Source of the DNA: Methanobacteriota archaeon
GTDB taxonomy: Archaea > Thermoplasmatota > B47-G6
Length of the DNA stretch: 32,411 nt
Reading direction: 5' to 3'
NCBI GenBank assembly: GCA_021162855.1
Contig: JAGGXY010000083.1
Location: forward strand, 1-32,411
This document shows, piece by piece, positions 1-19,444 of the stretch (its first letter is position 1; every line of letters starts with the position of its first letter). The position numbers and the translations under genes were made by a program. Under the pieces are notes generated by a model. It did no database searches. It saw only the letters and a program-made list of their open reading frames with translations, and had not been told where the DNA came from.

Positions 1-164
1 AGACCAATGATATGCTCCCGATGAACCCTGAGGGGGCTGAGGTTGATGTGCCCCAAAGCTTACACAGGCTTACAAATGCCTATGTAGGCTGAACCCCATT
101 ATCTCCCATGGCTATACTATTATATACCTATCTCAAATAATACATGATTTTCAAGGTGATCACT

Positions 165-314
165 ATGGGATTCCCAGAGGCAGAGGCAAGATTGCTCAAT
201 AAGTATATATGCATGAAATGTAGCGCAAGGAATCCTCCAAGAGCAAAACGTTGTAGACGATGTGGCTCAACTAAACTAAGACCAAAAGCTAAGGAACCTA
301 GAGGAGGCAGATAA
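165..314 (+). CDS. rpl40e: 50S ribosomal protein L40e
   Basis: This short ORF falls below the track cutoff. ATG165 to TAA312-314 translates to [49 protein letters not shown]. It has a CxxC...CxxC zinc ribbon and an N-terminus typical of archaeal L40e. A GGTGATC Shine-Dalgarno sits at 155-161. An in-frame ATG at 144 is the alternative start. Confidence 0.85.
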
Positions 315-466
315 AGGATATATTGGTTATTTTGCTCATTAATGACGTACGAACGCTCGCGAATATTCATGAATGCCCACAAGGACAAGAACAGTTTCAT
401 AAGGCGCCAAAAGGAAGGTCTTCCATATATGCACTATGCTTTCCATAATTAGAGGTAGTATTTGTT

Positions 467-2960: not shown

Positions 2961-4298
2961 CATCTCCTTTTCTATTTTGCTGAGATATTCTGAGGATGCC
3001 TTTACATCCACAAATAGTCTTGAAGCTCTCTCTACGTCTTCCGGCATGACTTCTTTTCTGCCTTCACTCTCTGCAATTATTCTCGAAGGAGTCAATAGTT
3101 GTACTGCATACCTCAAAGATCTTTCTGCACCAAGTTTCACAAGTCTTTCTAGTGCTTCATCATTTATTTTAACGTTCTCTTCTCTCGCCCTAATTCTTAA
3201 TATTTCTCTTATCTCGTCCTCAGAATACTTCCTTGTAACAATTATCAAGAGCCTGTCCAGGAGATCCAAGGGCATTCCGTGTGGCGCCACGGCATCTGTA
3301 CCACGTATCTTTGTAACTCCTCTGTTCGTAGCGAAGATTATTATTGGAGCAAGTTCCTGCTCCAGTGCTCTATTGAGAAATGCAAATGTTTCTATATCTA
3401 ATAATGAAGCTTCGTCTATGAAGAGAACCCCAGGTATTATCTCTGCACGACCTTCTTCTATCCACTCTTTAACCATCTTATCTACTTCCCTTCTTACATC
3501 TTGACTTATCTCTTTTCTCTGAACACCTCCAAAGAATATGTCAAAGAGTGAATATTGAGATCTGCTGTGCATTAAATCAAGCTGATGAAGCGTAAGTGTG
3601 TATACAAACTCCTTCTCCTTCTTTACTGAACCAGAAGGTACAGGCACGGCCTTCTCTGTGTATAAAGTTTCATCACCAATGGCATCCTCAGCAACTCCTA
3701 CACGCACAATGCGGCCACTGTCTATATCTATCATTATAATATCTCCTTCTCTTATTCCCAACTGAACAAGCTGTCTCGTATATCCCTCATCTAGGCTTAG
3801 TTTTTTCTTTTCATCCTTAGTAGCAAGCACAATCTTAGCGCTAACGGGAACCTGCATATATGGATTCCACGGTGAAGCCTTTGTTTGAATGTCTACTTCA
3901 AGCACTTTTCCCTCATAAACGTTCCTCTTTTCTCTCACTCTCACACCAATCGCACTTCTTATAGCCTGAGTGAGGAATTCTGTTTTCTTGATCTCGGCTG
4001 AATAAATCTCGGAAGCTGTTATTGGGACGAAAGGAACATCTTCACCAAGTTCTTTTGCTATAGCCACTGCTATAGCGGTTTTACCACTACCTGGTGGACC
4101 TGCTATTAGAACAGCCTTTCCAGAGAACTTACCTTCCTTTATCATTCTAACTATTATGCCAGCAGCTTCTCTAGCTTCTTCCTGCCCCACCATTCCATCA
4201 GCGGTATGCTTCGCCTTAAGCCCCTCCAGACCAAGTCCTTTTATATGAGAATGGGCATGCACTCTCTCGAATGTTCCGCCTATTTCACGTATCTCCAT
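2949..4298 (-). CDS. TIP49/RuvB-like AAA+ ATPase
   Basis: It has the N-terminal HSHIKGLGL motif, Walker A GPPGSGKTAIA and Walker B LFIDEAS, with a RuvBL-type inserted domain between them. ATG4298 (MEIREIGG...) is preceded by GGTGAT. The track start at 4364 adds an implausible leader. Confidence 0.85.
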   Translation of the reverse strand: MEIREIGGTFERVHAHSHIKGLGLEGLKAKHTADGMVGQEEAREAAGIIVRMIKEGKFSGKAVLIAGPPGSGKTAIAVAIAKELGEDVPFVPITASEIYSAEIKKTEFLTQAIRSAIGVRVREKRNVYEGKVLEVDIQTKASPWNPYMQVPVSAKIVLATKDEKKKLSLDEGYTRQLVQLGIREGDIIMIDIDSGRIVRVGVAEDAIGDETLYTEKAVPVPSGSVKKEKEFVYTLTLHQLDLMHSRSQYSLFDIFFGGVQRKEISQDVRREVDKMVKEWIEEGRAEIIPGVLFIDEASLLDIETFAFLNRALEQELAPIIIFATNRGVTKIRGTDAVAPHGMPLDLLDRLLIIVTRKYSEDEIREILRIRAREENVKINDEALERLVKLGAERSLRYAVQLLTPSRIIAESEGRKEVMPEDVERASRLFVDVKASSEYLSKIEKEMLYY

Positions 4299-4392
4299 GA
4301 CAATCACCAGGGCTAGTTTCCTAAAAGACATCTTGATTGTCTTCAAGAAAAACTCGAAAAACAATTTGTGTAAAAATAAGAAAGAGACATGA

Positions 4393-4974
4393 TCACTCTA
4401 TCTTTATCTTCTTTCCAGACCTTTTCTCGGACCCCTTTTTCTTTATTATGATATCTAGTATACCGTTCTTGTATGTGGCTTTGATACTGTCTGGATCGAC
4501 GTCTGCTGGAAGCTCAAGTACCTTCTTATACTTCCTGTTCTCACCCTCGGCCTTTATGAGAAGCTTGTTTCCATCCATAACCTCGAGATCTATCTTGTCC
4601 TTGTCCACACCTGGAAGCTCGACTGTCACGTAAACCTTGTCCTTATCTTCTACAATCTCCACAAGGGGTTCCCTTTCTTCCTCAAGCTGCTCCTCAGTAA
4701 TACCTCTCGGCATCACCTGCCTTGGAACGTTTCCAAAGGTCTCTATCCTTGGCTTTCCATCAGGTCCTATGGAAATTGTAAAACCGTAAACGACTGACTT
4801 CGGAGATCCAGTTCTTGCCATTTCTTCAAATCTTCTCCTTAAGTCATAAAAGATCTTGTTAAAGTATTCGTCTATTAGCGTCATCTCTTCCATGAGCTCT
4901 TCGAATATGTCCTCGAATCCGTAAGGTTCCCATGGATCCCATCTGCGTCTTCTCTTCCTTGGCCACCATGCCAT
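4393..4974 (-). CDS. Small heat shock protein, Hsp20/alpha-crystallin family
   Basis: The alpha-crystallin domain reads VYVTVELPGVDKDKIDLEV...KKVLELPADVDPDSIKATYKNGILDI. A long basic and acidic N-terminal extension precedes it. AGGAGGTG lies 8 nt upstream of the ATG. Confidence 0.9.
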   Translation of the reverse strand: MAWWPRKRRRRWDPWEPYGFEDIFEELMEEMTLIDEYFNKIFYDLRRRFEEMARTGSPKSVVYGFTISIGPDGKPRIETFGNVPRQVMPRGITEEQLEEEREPLVEIVEDKDKVYVTVELPGVDKDKIDLEVMDGNKLLIKAEGENRKYKKVLELPADVDPDSIKATYKNGILDIIIKKKGSEKRSGKKIKIE

Positions 4975-5005
4975 ATTTTCAACACCTCCTGATTATGATC
5001 GTGAT

Positions 5006-5050
5006 CTTTGAAAGCGTCAAAGTTAATATGTATGTGGTTCTATATAAAAA
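5006..5050 (-). promoter_or_regulatory. Putative hsp20 promoter with operator-like palindrome
   Basis: On the minus strand, TTTTTATATA (5041-5050) lies about 70 nt upstream of the hsp20 ATG. A perfect inverted repeat CTTTGA-N5-TCAAAG (5006-5022) sits where the transcription start is expected, about 25 nt downstream of the TATA box. Confidence 0.3.
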
Positions 5051-5117
5051 TTTCTATTTAGAAAAACATTCGTACTAAAATGTTCTTAAATGGTACCTGG
5101 TTATTTTCAAACTCAGT

Positions 5118-6671
5118 ATGGAGACCGAGGAACGGTTAAGCATAAGTGCAAAAGGAAGCGCAACGATACTTCAAAACGTTATAGGGGGTCTTTCTGGATT
5201 AGTAGCCTTATTCTTCATTGCTAGGTATATCCCTAAGAGTTTTTACGGAATGTATGCCTTTGTGTTGTCATTGTATAACCTTTACCTCTTCATGGTAGAT
5301 CTCGGCGTTAGCTCCGCATATATTAAAAAATATACGGAGCGTAAGTATTCACATGACGACCTTTTCAACACTTTCATGAGCATGAAAATAGTTCTGTCTG
5401 TGTTAATAGTCTCGGGATCATTCCTTTTAGTTTATGTCATTCTTCCGTATTTTGGCTATAGGCTATTTGATGCCACAACTCAAGAACTCTTCAATACGAT
5501 GCTCATATGGATCCTCATTGAGGGAACTGTCCTTTCCGTTTTGGGATCTTTCATTAGAGCAAACATGTCCTATGTTACTGCAAATTTAATATCTTCAGCT
5601 GAAGCTGTTGCTAGAGCAATTTTACAGATAGCAATAGCCTTTCTTTATAAAAATAAATTGATAGGAGGCATTTTTGCTGCAGAAATGCTCTTAATAACGT
5701 TTATACTTTCTAGATTGCTGAACATGACTTTCATGTTACTTCTCTCAAGAAGATTGATCCTCAGATTCAAATTTTCTTTAAAATTAGAAATAGTTAAGGA
5801 TATTCTTAGGTTCTCAATACCTCTTGCTATAACCGGTGCTGTCATAATCATATCAGCGAACATAGACAAAATAATGCTTGGATGGATATTTTCAAGTGCA
5901 GATGTCGCTGATTATAATGTTGTCCAGAGATATGCCAAGTTTATTTCAAATATTGCCATGGGAATATCCCAAATATTTTTTGTAAAGGTCTCAATAGATG
6001 CCATGAATAAGAGCATTCCCGAAATAGAGAAATATCTAAAGGAATGGGAAGAAACCATTGCTATTATACTCGCTCCGGCAGTTCCACTTGCCTACGTCCT
6101 CTCTGATAATTTGATAATAATATTTCTTAGCAAGCAATATGTAACGGCATCTAATACGCTCTTCGTCCTTGTGTTGACATATATACTTCTTGCAATAAGA
6201 AGTCCACTCTCTTCCACTTTTTTGAGCTTTAATAAGCAGTGGACAGCTGCAGGAATTGCCATATTTGCAAACGTTCTTAACGTAATACTTAACATTCTCC
6301 TAATACCTGTGATGAGAAGCTTTGGAGCGGCACTCGCGACTCTTATTTCAGTTGGTATTTTGGGGTCGCTTCTTACATACATTATGCTGAGAAAAATTGG
6401 CTTAAAGCACTTAGGAGTGCGCTCACATCTTTATCTCCTGTTAGGACTTCCACTATTCCCAATCGCTTACGTCCTCAAGCCATATCTTTATAGAGTTTTC
6501 ACATTTTTACCAGCGGTTTTGGCACTCTACATAGCATATCTCATAGTAATGCGCGTCCTAAACGTCCTTGACAAGGAGAAGTTCGAAATTATAATGGGAA
6601 TGCTAAGCATTAAAAACCTCAAAAGAACTTTCATCGATGAGCTTGAACGAATAAAGAACAACTCACAATGA
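5118..6671 (+). CDS. Polysaccharide/oligosaccharide flippase (MOP superfamily, Wzx/AglR-like)
   Basis: The 517-aa protein is almost entirely hydrophobic, with roughly 12-14 predicted membrane spans. Its layout is typical of polysaccharide biosynthesis (PST) transporters. Confidence 0.7.
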   Translation: METEERLSISAKGSATILQNVIGGLSGLVALFFIARYIPKSFYGMYAFVLSLYNLYLFMVDLGVSSAYIKKYTERKYSHDDLFNTFMSMKIVLSVLIVSGSFLLVYVILPYFGYRLFDATTQELFNTMLIWILIEGTVLSVLGSFIRANMSYVTANLISSAEAVARAILQIAIAFLYKNKLIGGIFAAEMLLITFILSRLLNMTFMLLLSRRLILRFKFSLKLEIVKDILRFSIPLAITGAVIIISANIDKIMLGWIFSSADVADYNVVQRYAKFISNIAMGISQIFFVKVSIDAMNKSIPEIEKYLKEWEETIAIILAPAVPLAYVLSDNLIIIFLSKQYVTASNTLFVLVLTYILLAIRSPLSSTFLSFNKQWTAAGIAIFANVLNVILNILLIPVMRSFGAALATLISVGILGSLLTYIMLRKIGLKHLGVRSHLYLLLGLPLFPIAYVLKPYLYRVFTFLPAVLALYIAYLIVMRVLNVLDKEKFEIIMGMLSIKNLKRTFIDELERIKNNSQ

Positions 6672-8361: not shown

Positions 8362-9368
8362 GGGTGATAATAGGCGGTAAACCTGTTGAAATGAGGAGTG
8401 TCTGGGCAGAAGACGGCATAATAAAGCTTATTGATCAGAGAAGACTTCCAAGGGAGCTTGTCATATTTGAGGCAAAGACGTTAGAAGACGTCGCGTTTGC
8501 AATAAAGGAAATGGTTGTTAGAGGAGCCCCAGCCATAGGAATAACAGCAGCATATGGAATGGCTTTAGCACATGCTCAGGGAATTGATCCAGAACACGCA
8601 GCGAGTGTACTAAGAAATACTAGACCTACAGCTCATGATTTGTTTTTTGCTATAGATTACATGCTAAAGCACTATGATGAGGGATGGGAGGCTGCTGAAC
8701 AATATGCAAACGATGTGATAGAGAAGGCCAGGCTTATAGGAGTTCATGGTGAACCTCTCATAGAAGATGAAGACAGAATACTTACGCACTGTAATGCCGG
8801 TGCCTTAGCTGTTGGTGATTGGGGAACTGCTCTTGCACCCATAAGAATGGCCCACAGAAATGGTAAGAAGGTCTTCGTTTATGTCGACGAAACAAGGCCT
8901 AGACTTCAAGGCATGTTAACAGCATGGGAGCTCCTTAATGAAGGAATAGACCACGTTATAATACCTGACAATGCCGCTGGATACTTCATGTGGAGGGGAG
9001 AAATAGATCTCGTCATAGTAGGTGCTGATAGGATAGCTCTAAATGGAGACTTCGCTAATAAAATAGGAACGTATGAAAAGGCGGTCTTGGCTAAGGAAAA
9101 TGGCATTCCATTCTTTGTTGCGGCACCTATAACAACGTTTGATCCAAACATTGAAAACGGTATGCAAATTCCTATAGAAGAAAGAAGTGAACAAGAGGTT
9201 CTTTCAGTGGACAAACCAATACCCCCTCCAAAGGGATCACGTGCTAGAAACCCAGCATTTGATGTGACCCCACATAAGTATCTAACAGGAATCATAACGG
9301 AATATGGGATAATATATCCCCCATTTAAGAAAAACATAAAGAAGCTATTAAAAAAGATCACTAAGTGA
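8358..9368 (+). CDS. mtnA: Methylthioribose-1-phosphate isomerase-like protein (aIF-2BI / eIF-2B alpha-beta-delta family)
   Basis: The sequence IKLIDQRRLP...VRGAPAIGITAAYGMAL...VGADRIALNGD is typical of the MtnA subgroup. ATGA start/stop overlap with the GT2 gene. Sequence alone cannot exclude a sugar-bisphosphate isomerase role. Confidence 0.8.
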   Translation: MRVIIGGKPVEMRSVWAEDGIIKLIDQRRLPRELVIFEAKTLEDVAFAIKEMVVRGAPAIGITAAYGMALAHAQGIDPEHAASVLRNTRPTAHDLFFAIDYMLKHYDEGWEAAEQYANDVIEKARLIGVHGEPLIEDEDRILTHCNAGALAVGDWGTALAPIRMAHRNGKKVFVYVDETRPRLQGMLTAWELLNEGIDHVIIPDNAAGYFMWRGEIDLVIVGADRIALNGDFANKIGTYEKAVLAKENGIPFFVAAPITTFDPNIENGMQIPIEERSEQEVLSVDKPIPPPKGSRARNPAFDVTPHKYLTGIITEYGIIYPPFKKNIKKLLKKITK

Positions 9369-9371
9369 GAA

Positions 9372-9685
9372 GTCCAACCTAAGGGTTCTCTCTATGGGGG
9401 ATGTTAGTGTGATCTCGTGGAATCTTAATCCCAGTCTCTGCTTCTCGAGGACTATAATCCCGTAGGGATTGGCATTCATAGGCCCGTCATCGGGAGTTCT
9501 TCCCTCGAGACCTCCAATCCCTTCGGGGAACCATTCTGGTTAACCGTAACTTGTGTAATGGCTAACCTTCCCTCCCCTGGCTTCATTGGAGGGCTTTCGG
9601 GATCACGCGAGCCTCACATCCTCGCGGCTTTAGCGTTCCCATTTGGGCTTAGGACTCGCATGTCAAGGACTGCCACACTATAAGA
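9372..9685 (-). ncRNA. Candidate structured ncRNA A (unknown family; paralog of 18725-19160)
   Basis: This is a GC-rich, ORF-free island in AT-rich DNA. On the minus strand, TTTTTAAA (9703-9710) lies about 25 nt upstream of the first helix. Local hairpins sit at 9456-9470 (AATCCC/GGGATT), 9483-9494 (CCCG/CGGG) and 9518-9529. A 7-bp helix pairs 9444-9450 with 9503-9509, and a long-range helix pairs 9399-9407 with 9613-9621. A T6 run follows on the minus strand at 9350-9355. Strand choice rests on G-U pairs and promoter position and is not certain. Confidence 0.5.
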
Positions 9686-9765
9686 GATAAATCCTAAGAA
9701 TGTTTAAAAATTGCAGGGACATTACGTGCCAAACTTTACACTCTCTACCATCTACAAAACAGCCC
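9561..9765. repeat. Copy 1 of a ~200-nt dispersed repeat (partner 19026-19243, same orientation)
   Basis: By manual alignment, roughly three quarters or more of positions are identical to 19026-19243. There is one insertion of about 11 nt in copy 2. The repeat spans the 5' module of the candidate RNA plus its promoter and upstream block. Confidence 0.8.
9700..9765 (-). promoter_or_regulatory. Conserved TATA/BRE-like element plus 37-nt upstream block for ncRNA A
   Basis: CTAAGAATGTTTAAAAATTGCAGGGA differs from its partner at 19171-19196 at only 1 of 26 positions. The block at 9729-9765 matches 19207-19243 at 34 of 37 positions. The TATA is near-palindromic, so divergent plus-strand initiation is also possible. 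Confidence 0.45.
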
Positions 9766-10091
9766 TCGCACTACAAGAACACTCTACTTGCCCTCATGAG
9801 TGCCAAGAGCATCTAAAGCAAATGAGAGCAGGGTGCAGGAGAAAACGGTGCCAAAAGGGAAGTAAAGCAGTAAACGGTTCATAAGAGTTTTCTTTCATAA
9901 GTGCTAAACCTTAAAAACATCAGGACATTAGTGTTTATGATTATTAGTTGACTAGTTCATTTAACGACTAAGAGCCAGCCCACTAGATCCTATAGGCAAA
10001 CATGATCGAAACAATAACACCCAGCTTTGAGGTCTATTTTAGCTCAAAATCTCCTTCCCAAGATTTAGAACATTTTTAGAGGTGATGAATT

Positions 10092-18446: not shown

Positions 18447-18724
18447 ATTTTGTATCACCGAAGTTTATGCGCTCCTCGAAATACTATTTAAGATATGTAG
18501 TAATAAAATACTTTTATCGTAATTTTCACAGCCTAATAATCGAATAAGAATACCACGATCGTTTAAGAGATTTTGTAACACGCCAATATCTACTCTAGTG
18601 CATGTAACATTGTATTTTACCTCACGCTAAAAGTGTACATTATGTTAGAAATCTCTCATTAGGTATAAGGGCTATTATCTCTGTAGTGGACTTTAAATAA
18701 GTTTAAGTAAGTTTATATTTATGT

Positions 18725-19160
18725 GTGGATAAGTTCTATAAGCCTGGTGGGCAGTGAAGAGTTCCTGAGGGTGGGTAAAGTGTCTTCTTAACCTTAGTGA
18801 GGGTACGCGTGATAATCTACGCGAGAGTATCATCTTATAGGCAGAGGGATTGTGAGATCTCGAGAGGCTGTGAGCTAGGTAAGAGTCCGAGGATGAGGGG
18901 CCTTGTATTCTCCCGCTTACTGGAAATACTACCACATTCATGAGGTATAAGAGAAAGAAACGAAAGATGCGTAAGACTCCATTATGATCAGCCGCAACTT
19001 CCATAAAGTTCGTAAACGTCGTTGCGGCTGACCTTCCAGCCTCGAGTAAGAACCTTCATTGGCTGGCTTTCGGGAGTATGCGAGCCCCACATCCTCGGAG
19101 GCTTTAGCGATCCCCATTCGGGCTTGGGACCCCACATATCGGGGATCGTCACATTATAAT
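18725..19160 (-). ncRNA. Candidate structured ncRNA B (unknown family; paralog of 9372-9685, with larger 3' domain)
   Basis: This GC-rich island of about 430 nt contains only short ORFs with no plausible products. On the minus strand, TTTTTAAA (19180-19187) lies about 25 nt upstream. A perfect 10-bp hairpin pairs 18989-18998 with 19021-19030. A long-range helix pairs 18887-18900 with 19085-19098 at 13 of 14 positions. Another pairs 18859-18870 with 19037-19046. A 5-bp hairpin pairs 18806-18810 with 18819-18823. The 5' module is homologous to ncRNA A. Confidence 0.5.
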
Positions 19161-19243
19161 GAGATAAGCCCTAAGAGTGTTTAAAAATTGCAGGGAACAT
19201 TAAATACCAAACTTTACGCTTTTTACCATCTACAAAACAGCCC
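19026..19243. repeat. Copy 2 of the ~200-nt dispersed repeat (partner 9561-9765)
   Basis: See copy 1. The orientation is the same, and the two copies lie about 9.5 kb apart. Confidence 0.8.
19171..19243 (-). promoter_or_regulatory. Conserved TATA/BRE-like element plus 37-nt upstream block for ncRNA B
   Basis: CTAAGAGTGTTTAAAAATTGCAGGGA (19171-19196) and CCAAACTTTACGCTTTTTACCATCTACAAAACAGCCC (19207-19243) are near-identical to 9691-9716 and 9729-9765. Confidence 0.45.
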
Positions 19244-19444
19244 ACGAGAACCCGATGAAGATCATACGGACAGGAGCAATGCTCCGGATAACACATGGCA
19301 TGGAAGAAATCTCACTATGATAAATAAATCCTAGCTACAGTTAGCCCTTACCAACCATAGCTAGAAAGAGGAGCAACGTAAATATAATACTTGAGTAGTT
19401 GTTCTTCGTATTGAACACAGTAACAAGCAGTACAGGTGTAAGCT

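Follow-up and report, generated by a model that had tools for sequence, protein, structure and literature searches.

The guide-RNA scaffold of TnpB is encoded by the last ~250 nt of the tnpB gene; this RNA is called ωRNA or right-end RNA (reRNA), and was earlier termed 'sotRNA'. The TnpB ωRNA or reRNA is reportedly the work of Karvelis and coworkers and of Altae-Tran and coworkers, in 2021 in both cases, and PATE-like (palindrome-associated transposable element) non-autonomous derivatives of IS200/IS605 elements are said to go back to Dyall-Smith and coworkers in 2011. Here we compare with these systems two loci in a 32,411-nt stretch of DNA (the window) of contig JAGGXY010000083.1, from a Methanobacteriota archaeon of the Thermoplasmatota. 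The window is ordinary archaeal chromosome, with genes that include an eIF-2B-family gene, UPF0147, FBPase, SRP54 and LeuRS. We consider it likely that both loci are gene-less copies of a dispersed element of ~265 nt that corresponds to a tnpB 3′ end (i.e. is of the ωRNA type), and that its RNA would be used in trans by a TnpB encoded elsewhere.

The closest described RNAs are sRk48 and sRk52, with six copies in Pyrococcus abyssi and others across the Thermococcales (Phok et al. 2011, BMC Genomics 12:312, PMC3124441). The primary transcript is 177/180 nt long and the processed form 130 nt, and the start of sRk52 was mapped 22 nt after a B recognition element and TATA box (BRE/TATA) (PMC3124441). 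Of the stems P0-P3, P0 and P3 covary and P1 is invariant, and the kink-loop (K-loop) in P2 of sRk52 shifts with L7Ae in electrophoretic mobility shift assays. Expression of sRk48/52 in P. abyssi was seen by Northern blot (dependence on growth stage being reported for the other non-coding RNAs of that study), and both RNAs resemble the 3′ ends of orphan OrfB (IS607-type) genes (PMC3124441). They have been tied to sense transcripts of tnpB 3′ ends (Gomes-Filho et al. 2015), which in current terms are ωRNA. PATEs are gene-less elements with ωRNAs that are proposed to act in trans with TnpB (Meers et al. 2023).

By profile match, the window loci are members of the sRk48/sRk52 family, which is absent from Rfam, in a new lineage. 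The targets were the sequences of the Additional file 6 alignment of Phok et al. 2011 (PMC3124441), and the query was a profile of our ten-sequence alignment A8 (nhmmer). This matched sRk52 with E=3.1e-37, sRk48 with E=1.7e-34 and Pfu 1500218 with E=3.2e-28, and also the 3′ ends of TK1842 (E=4e-27) and TSIB1736 (E=3e-24). In Rfam 15 nothing matched at the gathering threshold in the window or in two Thermococcus loci that carry the element (L088 and L089), and relaxed thresholds gave matches at chance level alone (E>2). A preliminary description of the window had found no known archaeal class for the two RNAs; their absence from Rfam is confirmed, yet the family was published in 2011 and can now be understood as a TnpB guide-RNA scaffold.

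The same description had taken 9561-9765 and 19026-19243 to be homologous and colinear. This is borne out, and the true shared unit is longer, i.e. ~265 nt, lying at 9531-9767 (copy 1) and 18979-19245 (copy 2) on the minus strand with ~83% identity. By blastn the two copies are 82.6% identical across 190 nt and equally oriented, their MAFFT alignment is colinear on the same strand, and a profile finds them with E=1e-92 and E=7e-75 (nhmmer). Reading both as paralogous structured RNAs of the minus strand is also upheld, that strand being favoured by G-U pairs and by the orientation of the promoter. Shuffled sequence folds less stably than either copy (z=-2.5 for copy 1 and z=-4.8 for copy 2), and local G+C is ~52% at the loci against ~40% nearby. 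A tRNA scan of the whole window found none.

The unit comprises an upstream block of 85-90 nt with a putative BRE/TATA promoter, followed by an RNA part of 153-181 nt (175 model positions) with four helices, P1-P4. The features of the two window copies are as follows, where R1 is the covariance model of the family.

9531..9683, minus strand: copy 1 RNA module (P1, P2, P3 K-loop hairpin and P4); R1 115.2 bits, E=3e-34, model positions 1-175.
9684..9767, minus strand: copy 1 upstream block, which begins GGGCTGTTTTGTAGATGG; E=1e-18 with a profile of the 5′ block (nhmmer).
9570..9593, minus strand: copy 1 P3 hairpin, CCCUCC-AAUGAAGCCAGG-GGAGGG; K-loop-like, with a degenerate 3′ GA.
9350..9530, minus strand: GC-rich 3′ flank of copy 1, locus-specific and common to no other copy.
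18979..19159, minus strand: copy 2 RNA module, intact; R1 192 bits, E=7.5e-57.
19160..19245, minus strand: copy 2 upstream block with BRE/TATA; E=6.5e-22 (nhmmer), the plus strand reading TTTAAAAA at 19180-19187.
19036..19066, minus strand: copy 2 P3 kink-turn (K-turn)/K-loop hairpin, CCAGCC-AAUGAAG...CGA-GGCUGG, by direct reading of the sequence.
18986..19033, minus strand: copy 2 P4 hairpin of 13 bp, with perfect 11-nt arms (18988-18998 and 19021-19031); its 3′ strand holds the relic tnpB stop (GGCUGA).
18847..19039, plus strand: degenerate second module copy in inverted orientation, placed tail-to-tail with copy 2, with which it shares the palindromic P4; R1 22.9 bits, E=4e-7 locally, and E=4e-5 by nhmmer.

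Copy 1 is the most decayed of the full-length copies; the loop of P4 is deleted and that of P3 shortened, and pairing is partly lost in both P1 and P1a. Its BRE/TATA can be read directly as TTTTTAAA (9710 to 9703, minus strand), which places it ~20-25 nt ahead of the predicted RNA start. We note that the minus strand of 9369-9530, between copy 1 and the convergent eIF-2B-family gene, is GC-rich and strongly self-paired; within it, 9459-9472 and 9514-9527 form an inverted repeat of 93% complementarity. None of the fetched loci contains a homolog of this stretch, and Rfam gave no match to it. At copy 2 an open reading frame (ORF) of 103 aa at 18693-19004 on the minus strand overlaps the inverted remnant; it has no Pfam family and is probably spurious.

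The structure was analysed using the ten sequences of alignment A8 and the model R1, under which the ten copies reach 115-200 bits, with copy 1 the lowest. Nine pairs have double changes and 94.8% of cells are paired. The covariation score was reached in none of 500 shuffles, and controls in which the partner strand was slid pair at 29-52%. Covariation supports three helices.

P1: GCGGUCCCC/GGGGACCGC against GCAGU../..ACUGC; two pairs changed on both sides.
P3: CCAGCC/GGCUGG against CCCUCC/GGAGGG; two pairs changed on both sides.
P4: 13 bp; five pairs changed on both sides.

The remaining helix, P2 (GGGG..CCCC), is nearly invariant and its changes are one-sided only. P3 is the first helix of the preliminary description, where CCCUCC/GGAGGG (9588-9593 with 9570-9575) becomes CCAGCC/GGCUGG (19061-19066 with 19036-19041), coordinates that we could confirm base by base. 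Its variable pairs switch together across the ten members; five have A-U/G-C, four have C-G/U-A, and one is a hybrid with both pairs broken. P3 bears the signature of a K-turn or K-loop, with a 3-nt AAU bulge, a GA after it, and a second GA ahead of the closing strand. Nine of the ten copies have the motif CC-AAU-GA...GA-GG, which is degenerate in copy 1. A further hairpin had been proposed, CUUG..CGAG in copy 1 and CCCG..UGGG in copy 2. This can be formed by all ten sequences (97% of cells paired, with one-sided changes only), but the same C-run can extend the long P1 helix instead, and that pairing fits the ten sequences equally well.

Eight of the ten copies lie outside the window, in Thermoplasmata metagenome-assembled genomes (MAGs) and in two Thermococcus genomes, and so the family extends beyond the Thermococcales into the Thermoplasmata. 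A strict exact DNA pattern had no matches in GTDB genomes or in viral contigs; in metagenomes it found two true copies, both from one metagenome (L002 and L004), together with two chance matches within a kinase ORF. Further copies were found with a profile of the longest open sense frame of the module, searched against a protein collection, which returned nine tiny 'ORFs' of gene callers that sit on copies of the element. The loci that carry them include the following.

L088: Thermococcus atlanticus.
L089: Thermococcus sp. 101 C5.
L090-L094: several Thermoplasmata contigs.

L094 comes from the same MAG as the closest relative of the window's SRP54, and L092 from the same metagenome as a contig that bears this exact SRP54. 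The closest SRP54 loci are Thermoplasmata MAGs, one of them from Guaymas Basin at 89% identity. None of 80 loci collected by SRP54-based synteny carries the element; these gave the taxonomy and an empty orthologous site (below) instead.

The origin of the element is indicated by matches of R1 to the 3′ ends of tnpB genes, scoring 108.7 bits in L095 and 70.4 bits in L096, the latter with a separate match to P1 (29.6 bits) ~20 nt upstream. The tnpB ORFs of both loci carry OrfB_IS605 and Cas12f1-like TNB domains. When the profile of the open frame was searched against 1.8 billion representative proteins it returned mostly more tiny ORFs, and in addition two C-terminal fragments of TnpB, P0022 and P0020, with tails ...CPVCGEKLSPNGHRVLKCSNCGFEADRDVVGSFNISVRALKMWGVSVPPESHPMK.... 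P0022 is a Thermococcus transposase with a Cas12f1-like TNB domain (E=1e-24) and the tail ...ADRDVVGSFNISVRALKMWGVSVPPESHPMK. It aligns to the frame of L094 with E=3e-15 and a single gap of 22-23 residues, and to that of window copy 2 with E=3e-6. What falls into this gap is the second zinc-finger half (i.e. the second CxxC) together with the RuvC-III motif, corresponding to ~70 nt. In the tnpB genes of L095 and L096 the CPICG zinc finger corresponds to CCGAUAUGUGGGG, and GGCUGA on the 3′ side of P4 supplies the stop. As judged by these matches, the RNA part of the element is homologous to the last ~250 nt of a tnpB (OrfB) gene of the IS200/IS605-IS607 type. The orphan copies keep an open frame because the tnpB stop lies within the 3′ strand of P4, so that the frame is a relic of tnpB. 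Since no tnpB adjoins any orphan copy, and tnpB-embedded homologs exist elsewhere, the window copies are derivatives and not canonical ωRNA loci. We also note that a motif AUGUGG(G/C)G occurs three times per RNA, e.g. within 19080-19150 on the minus strand of the window; the occurrences are near the 5′ end, in the inner loop of P1 and at the start of P2, and in tnpB the second of them encodes the CPICG zinc finger.

The TnpB C-terminal fragment has 54 close homologs, every one of them short (76-221 aa), with source labels that span Thermococcus, Palaeococcus, Asgard, Korarchaeota and Alkanophagales. Judging from public data, what is left of this tnpB clade in hydrothermal archaea seems to be mostly 3′ fragments, and the related fragments labelled Asgard, Korarchaeota and Alkanophagales suggest exchange among such organisms. 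The parent family may be of the IS607 type (with a serine recombinase) rather than of the IS605 type. A different candidate for the parent is found in the close relative L008, where a 3′ fragment of tnpB (1-340, plus strand; TNB domain, E=3e-12) lies next to the ortholog of a 267-aa gene of the window. The hairpin in its tail, CUCCCC-AAUGAACCCGGA-GGGGGG, resembles the K-loop stem of the family. As a parent this fragment was rejected; only one homolog of it was found, and its 3′ end is a different RNA (E=2.5 against R1).

The open frame raises the question of whether the unit is a gene for a small protein of 48-55 aa (MWG..KPEWG..RMWG..PPESQPMK..GGWKVSRNEIYELYGSCG), the mRNA of which happens to be highly structured. 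The frame runs to one conserved stop and is open in most copies, it has been annotated by gene callers in several genomes, and the predicted start near the first AUG would make the message possibly leaderless. Yet substitutions are spread evenly over the three codon positions (373:336:332), and dN/dS is mostly 0.4-1.3. The 5′ half is in different frames in near-identical copies (e.g. L092 and L094), radical paired swaps of residues at P3 (Q/P with W/G) track the base pairing, and both the frame and its stop are those of the relic tnpB. A protein-coding function is barely conceivable on these grounds. The view taken previously, that compensatory change reflects selection on RNA structure and not on protein, is thus borne out by the covariation in ten sequences and the flat codon-position counts. 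Public protein sets hold dozens of spurious ORF calls of 48-80 aa on members of the family; a covariance model for the family would end both these and its repeated 'rediscovery'.

The boundaries of the unit are sharp. At the 5′ side all copies begin with GGGCTGTTT(C/T), with the conserved BRE/TATA ~60 nt further on. The latter, TTTTTAAA(T/C)A, is ~20-25 nt before the first position of the model, which spans 153-181 nt. The promoter block (GGGCTGTTTC...CGCAATTTTTAAATA; 85-90 nt) is kept from Thermococcus to Thermoplasmata, i.e. in the window copies and in L088-L094. It was considered as the left end of a tnpB element, which is not supported, as it was not found in L095 or L096; the TnpB of the latter has an unrelated N-terminus. 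It was rejected as a remnant of the TnpB C-terminus (..LQFLNILR..), for which there is no Pfam support; the LNI stems from the TATA box, and the real relic frame of TnpB lies further downstream. At the 3′ side the conserved unit stops sharply at CAGAAYGG in 10/10 aligned copies, which we take to be the right end. Orphan and tnpB-embedded copies all end at CAGAAC(G/A)G or CAGAAUGG, followed by unrelated flanks. Seven copies have 120 nt or more of downstream sequence, and among these what lies 3′ of the unit is unrelated between loci, except in the orthologous pair L090/L094; L002 also diverges there (15 nt aligned).

This right end bears on a larger structure proposed in the preliminary description, i.e. 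RNAs of ~300 and 430 nt in which the shared 5′ module has a 3′ pairing partner of its own and selection maintains the long-range helix between them. Complementarity is indeed present at both loci, two positions differ between the loci by eye in a manner that preserves pairing, and the fold of copy 2 is very stable (z=-4.8). The arms in copy 2 (18881-18915 and 19071-19104) are 78-86% complementary, but this follows automatically from the partner segment, which is the degenerate inverted module copy on the plus strand. The arms in copy 1 (9400-9417 and 9598-9615) are 72% complementary (13/18), a weak pairing that is unused in the minimum-energy fold. Beyond CAGAACGG the other recovered copies share no 3′ domain; they are conserved as far as CAGAAYGG, and the sequences that follow are unrelated. 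The pairing is consequently a property of the individual loci and not of the family, and the larger RNAs, the dedicated 3′ partner included, are highly improbable.

The ten copies sit in unrelated housekeeping contexts, with no neighbouring gene conserved. Past the 3′ end lie a tRNA-Ser in L004 (44 nt away), an ABC ATPase in L002, and convergent genes elsewhere. In L004 the copy (4165-4563, minus strand) ends 44 nt upstream of the tRNA-Ser(GGA) on the same strand, so co-transcription is possible there. The site orthologous to that of copy 2 is empty in the closest relative, L008, where it is flanked by the same 267-aa gene and SRP54; comparison of this intergenic region with that of copy 2 shows the whole copy 2 region, ~700 nt, to be an insertion or deletion that distinguishes these close relatives. 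Two metagenome contigs that both have the exact SRP54 of the window (L005 and L007) stop inside the element, their position 1 corresponding to ~19135 of the window. Two independent contigs ending within an element are the usual sign of a repeat that breaks assembly. Decayed copies exist, namely copy 1 and the remnant at 18847-19039. In L090 the copy at 4979-5159 (plus strand) is a hybrid, with a P3 5′ strand of the CCCUCC type, a 3′ strand of the GGCUGG type and two broken pairs, which points to recombination or gene conversion between the family's two sequence subtypes.

These observations bear on whether the element has become a host RNA, i.e. a domesticated regulatory or structural small RNA bound by L7Ae, with its own regulated promoter and independent of any TnpB. 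An essential RNA gene would not be expected to have the birth-and-death pattern of a selfish repeat that is seen here; copy number and positions vary between close relatives with the orthologous site empty in L008, some copies are decayed, the member in L090 is a hybrid with a broken P3, and neighbouring genes are conserved nowhere. Domestication would accord with the conservation of the promoter block between Thermococcus and Thermoplasmata, with the compensatory change that keeps the helices in gene-less copies, with the expression of sRk48/52 in P. abyssi seen by Northern blot (PMC3124441), and with the separation from tnpB, which adjoins no orphan copy; the ~70-nt deletion relative to the tnpB-embedded form suggests a distinct RNA. 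Taking both sets of observations into account we regard domestication as unlikely. A riboswitch or leader was rejected, as the downstream genes differ at every locus. RNase P, signal recognition particle RNA, C/D and H/ACA guide RNAs, a group II intron, a diversity-generating retroelement, and an IscB or bridge RNA were also rejected, having neither defining features nor an Rfam signal.

By analogy with the described systems, the orphan RNAs are probably used in trans by TnpB. The RNA would be transcribed from its own promoter, bound by L7Ae at the K-loop and processed to a form of ~130 nt, carrying the adjacent flank as guide. A TnpB encoded elsewhere would then use this RNA in trans to cut the emptied site, whereby the element would be restored, as has been proposed for PATE-like non-autonomous elements with an ωRNA. 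If the RNA does act as an ωRNA, its guide in copy 1 would occupy the first ~16-20 nt of the flank (UUCCCCGAAGGGAUUGG...). The putative guides have no second match within the window.

Several points weigh against a gene-less ωRNA-type element. None of the ten orphan copies has a tnpB beside it, nor does the 32-kb window contain one, and the sole tnpB seen in a close relative, that of L008, has a different 3′ end, with only the K-loop hairpin alike (E=2.5, not significant). The promoter block was not found by nhmmer in the two tnpB-bearing loci available (L095 and L096); as parents one of these is cut by the contig end and the other is a divergent pseudogene. By eye neither boundary has a conserved motif resembling a transposon-associated motif (TAM), and terminal inverted repeats and target duplications are likewise absent. 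Some ~70 nt of the tnpB-embedded RNA are missing from the orphans, so that their fold or their binding of TnpB may differ. Lastly, expression, L7Ae binding and processing are carried over by analogy from P. abyssi, another organism.

A more elaborate function can be imagined for the orphans as dedicated guide-RNA genes with their own promoter. Here an ωRNA scaffold would have shed its ORF by the deletion of half the zinc finger and RuvC-III and gained a conserved regulated promoter, and would direct a TnpB, or a TnpB-like protein that is nuclease-dead, in trans to targets of host or foreign origin. We think this decidedly unlikely. If true, such stand-alone guide genes would be intermediate between the ωRNAs of transposons and guide loci of the CRISPR type, and hydrothermal habitats would be where they passed between Thermococcales and Thermoplasmata. 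Under the preferred reading as gene-less ωRNA-type elements, these self-promoted copies are suited to testing whether TnpB can be programmed in trans by orphan guides.

The present copies differ from sRk48/sRk52 in being located in Thermoplasmata MAGs from hydrothermal sediment and not in Thermococcales, and in having two sequence subtypes in the P2 region, with one hybrid copy. Moreover copy 1 is decayed, and copy 2 lies tail-to-tail with an inverted remnant. The four-stem layout is the same in both groups, with P1-P4 here equivalent to P0-P3 there; the first and last stems covary and the second is invariant, and here two pairs also covary in P3. The third stem has the K-loop motif in both; L7Ae binding was shown only with sRk52 of P. 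abyssi. A BRE/TATA lies just upstream of the RNA start, which for the present copies is a predicted one. The RNAs are alike too in being multi-copy and intergenic, and in the 5′ start (GGGCTGTTTCGTAG) and 3′ end (ACCAGAACGG) of the orphan unit.

Compared with the ωRNA of TnpB, the window copies are without tnpB, have a promoter block of their own, and lack ~70 nt, namely the codons of the second CxxC and RuvC-III. The TnpB ωRNA binds TnpB and directs TAM-dependent cleavage of DNA. In sequence and structure the two are alike in that homologs of the element lie inside the last ~250 nt of tnpB and run to the end of the element, and in that a structured scaffold is followed directly by unrelated flank at the position of a guide. 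As in TnpB ωRNA loci and the 'sotRNA' of IS1341-type elements, the reading frame of the orphans is that of the TnpB C-terminus.

As regards PATEs, the right end is common to the orphans and the tnpB-bearing copies; a shared left end was sought in the two parents available, L095 and L096, and not found, and no TAM-like flank motif was seen. The window copies resemble PATEs in being gene-less and dispersed, in showing no terminal inverted repeats or target duplications, and in keeping the right-end/ωRNA part. Both TnpB and TnpA are proposed to be supplied to PATEs in trans (Meers et al. 2023), and the same may apply here. Taken together, the window loci are most likely PATE-like orphan ωRNA elements.

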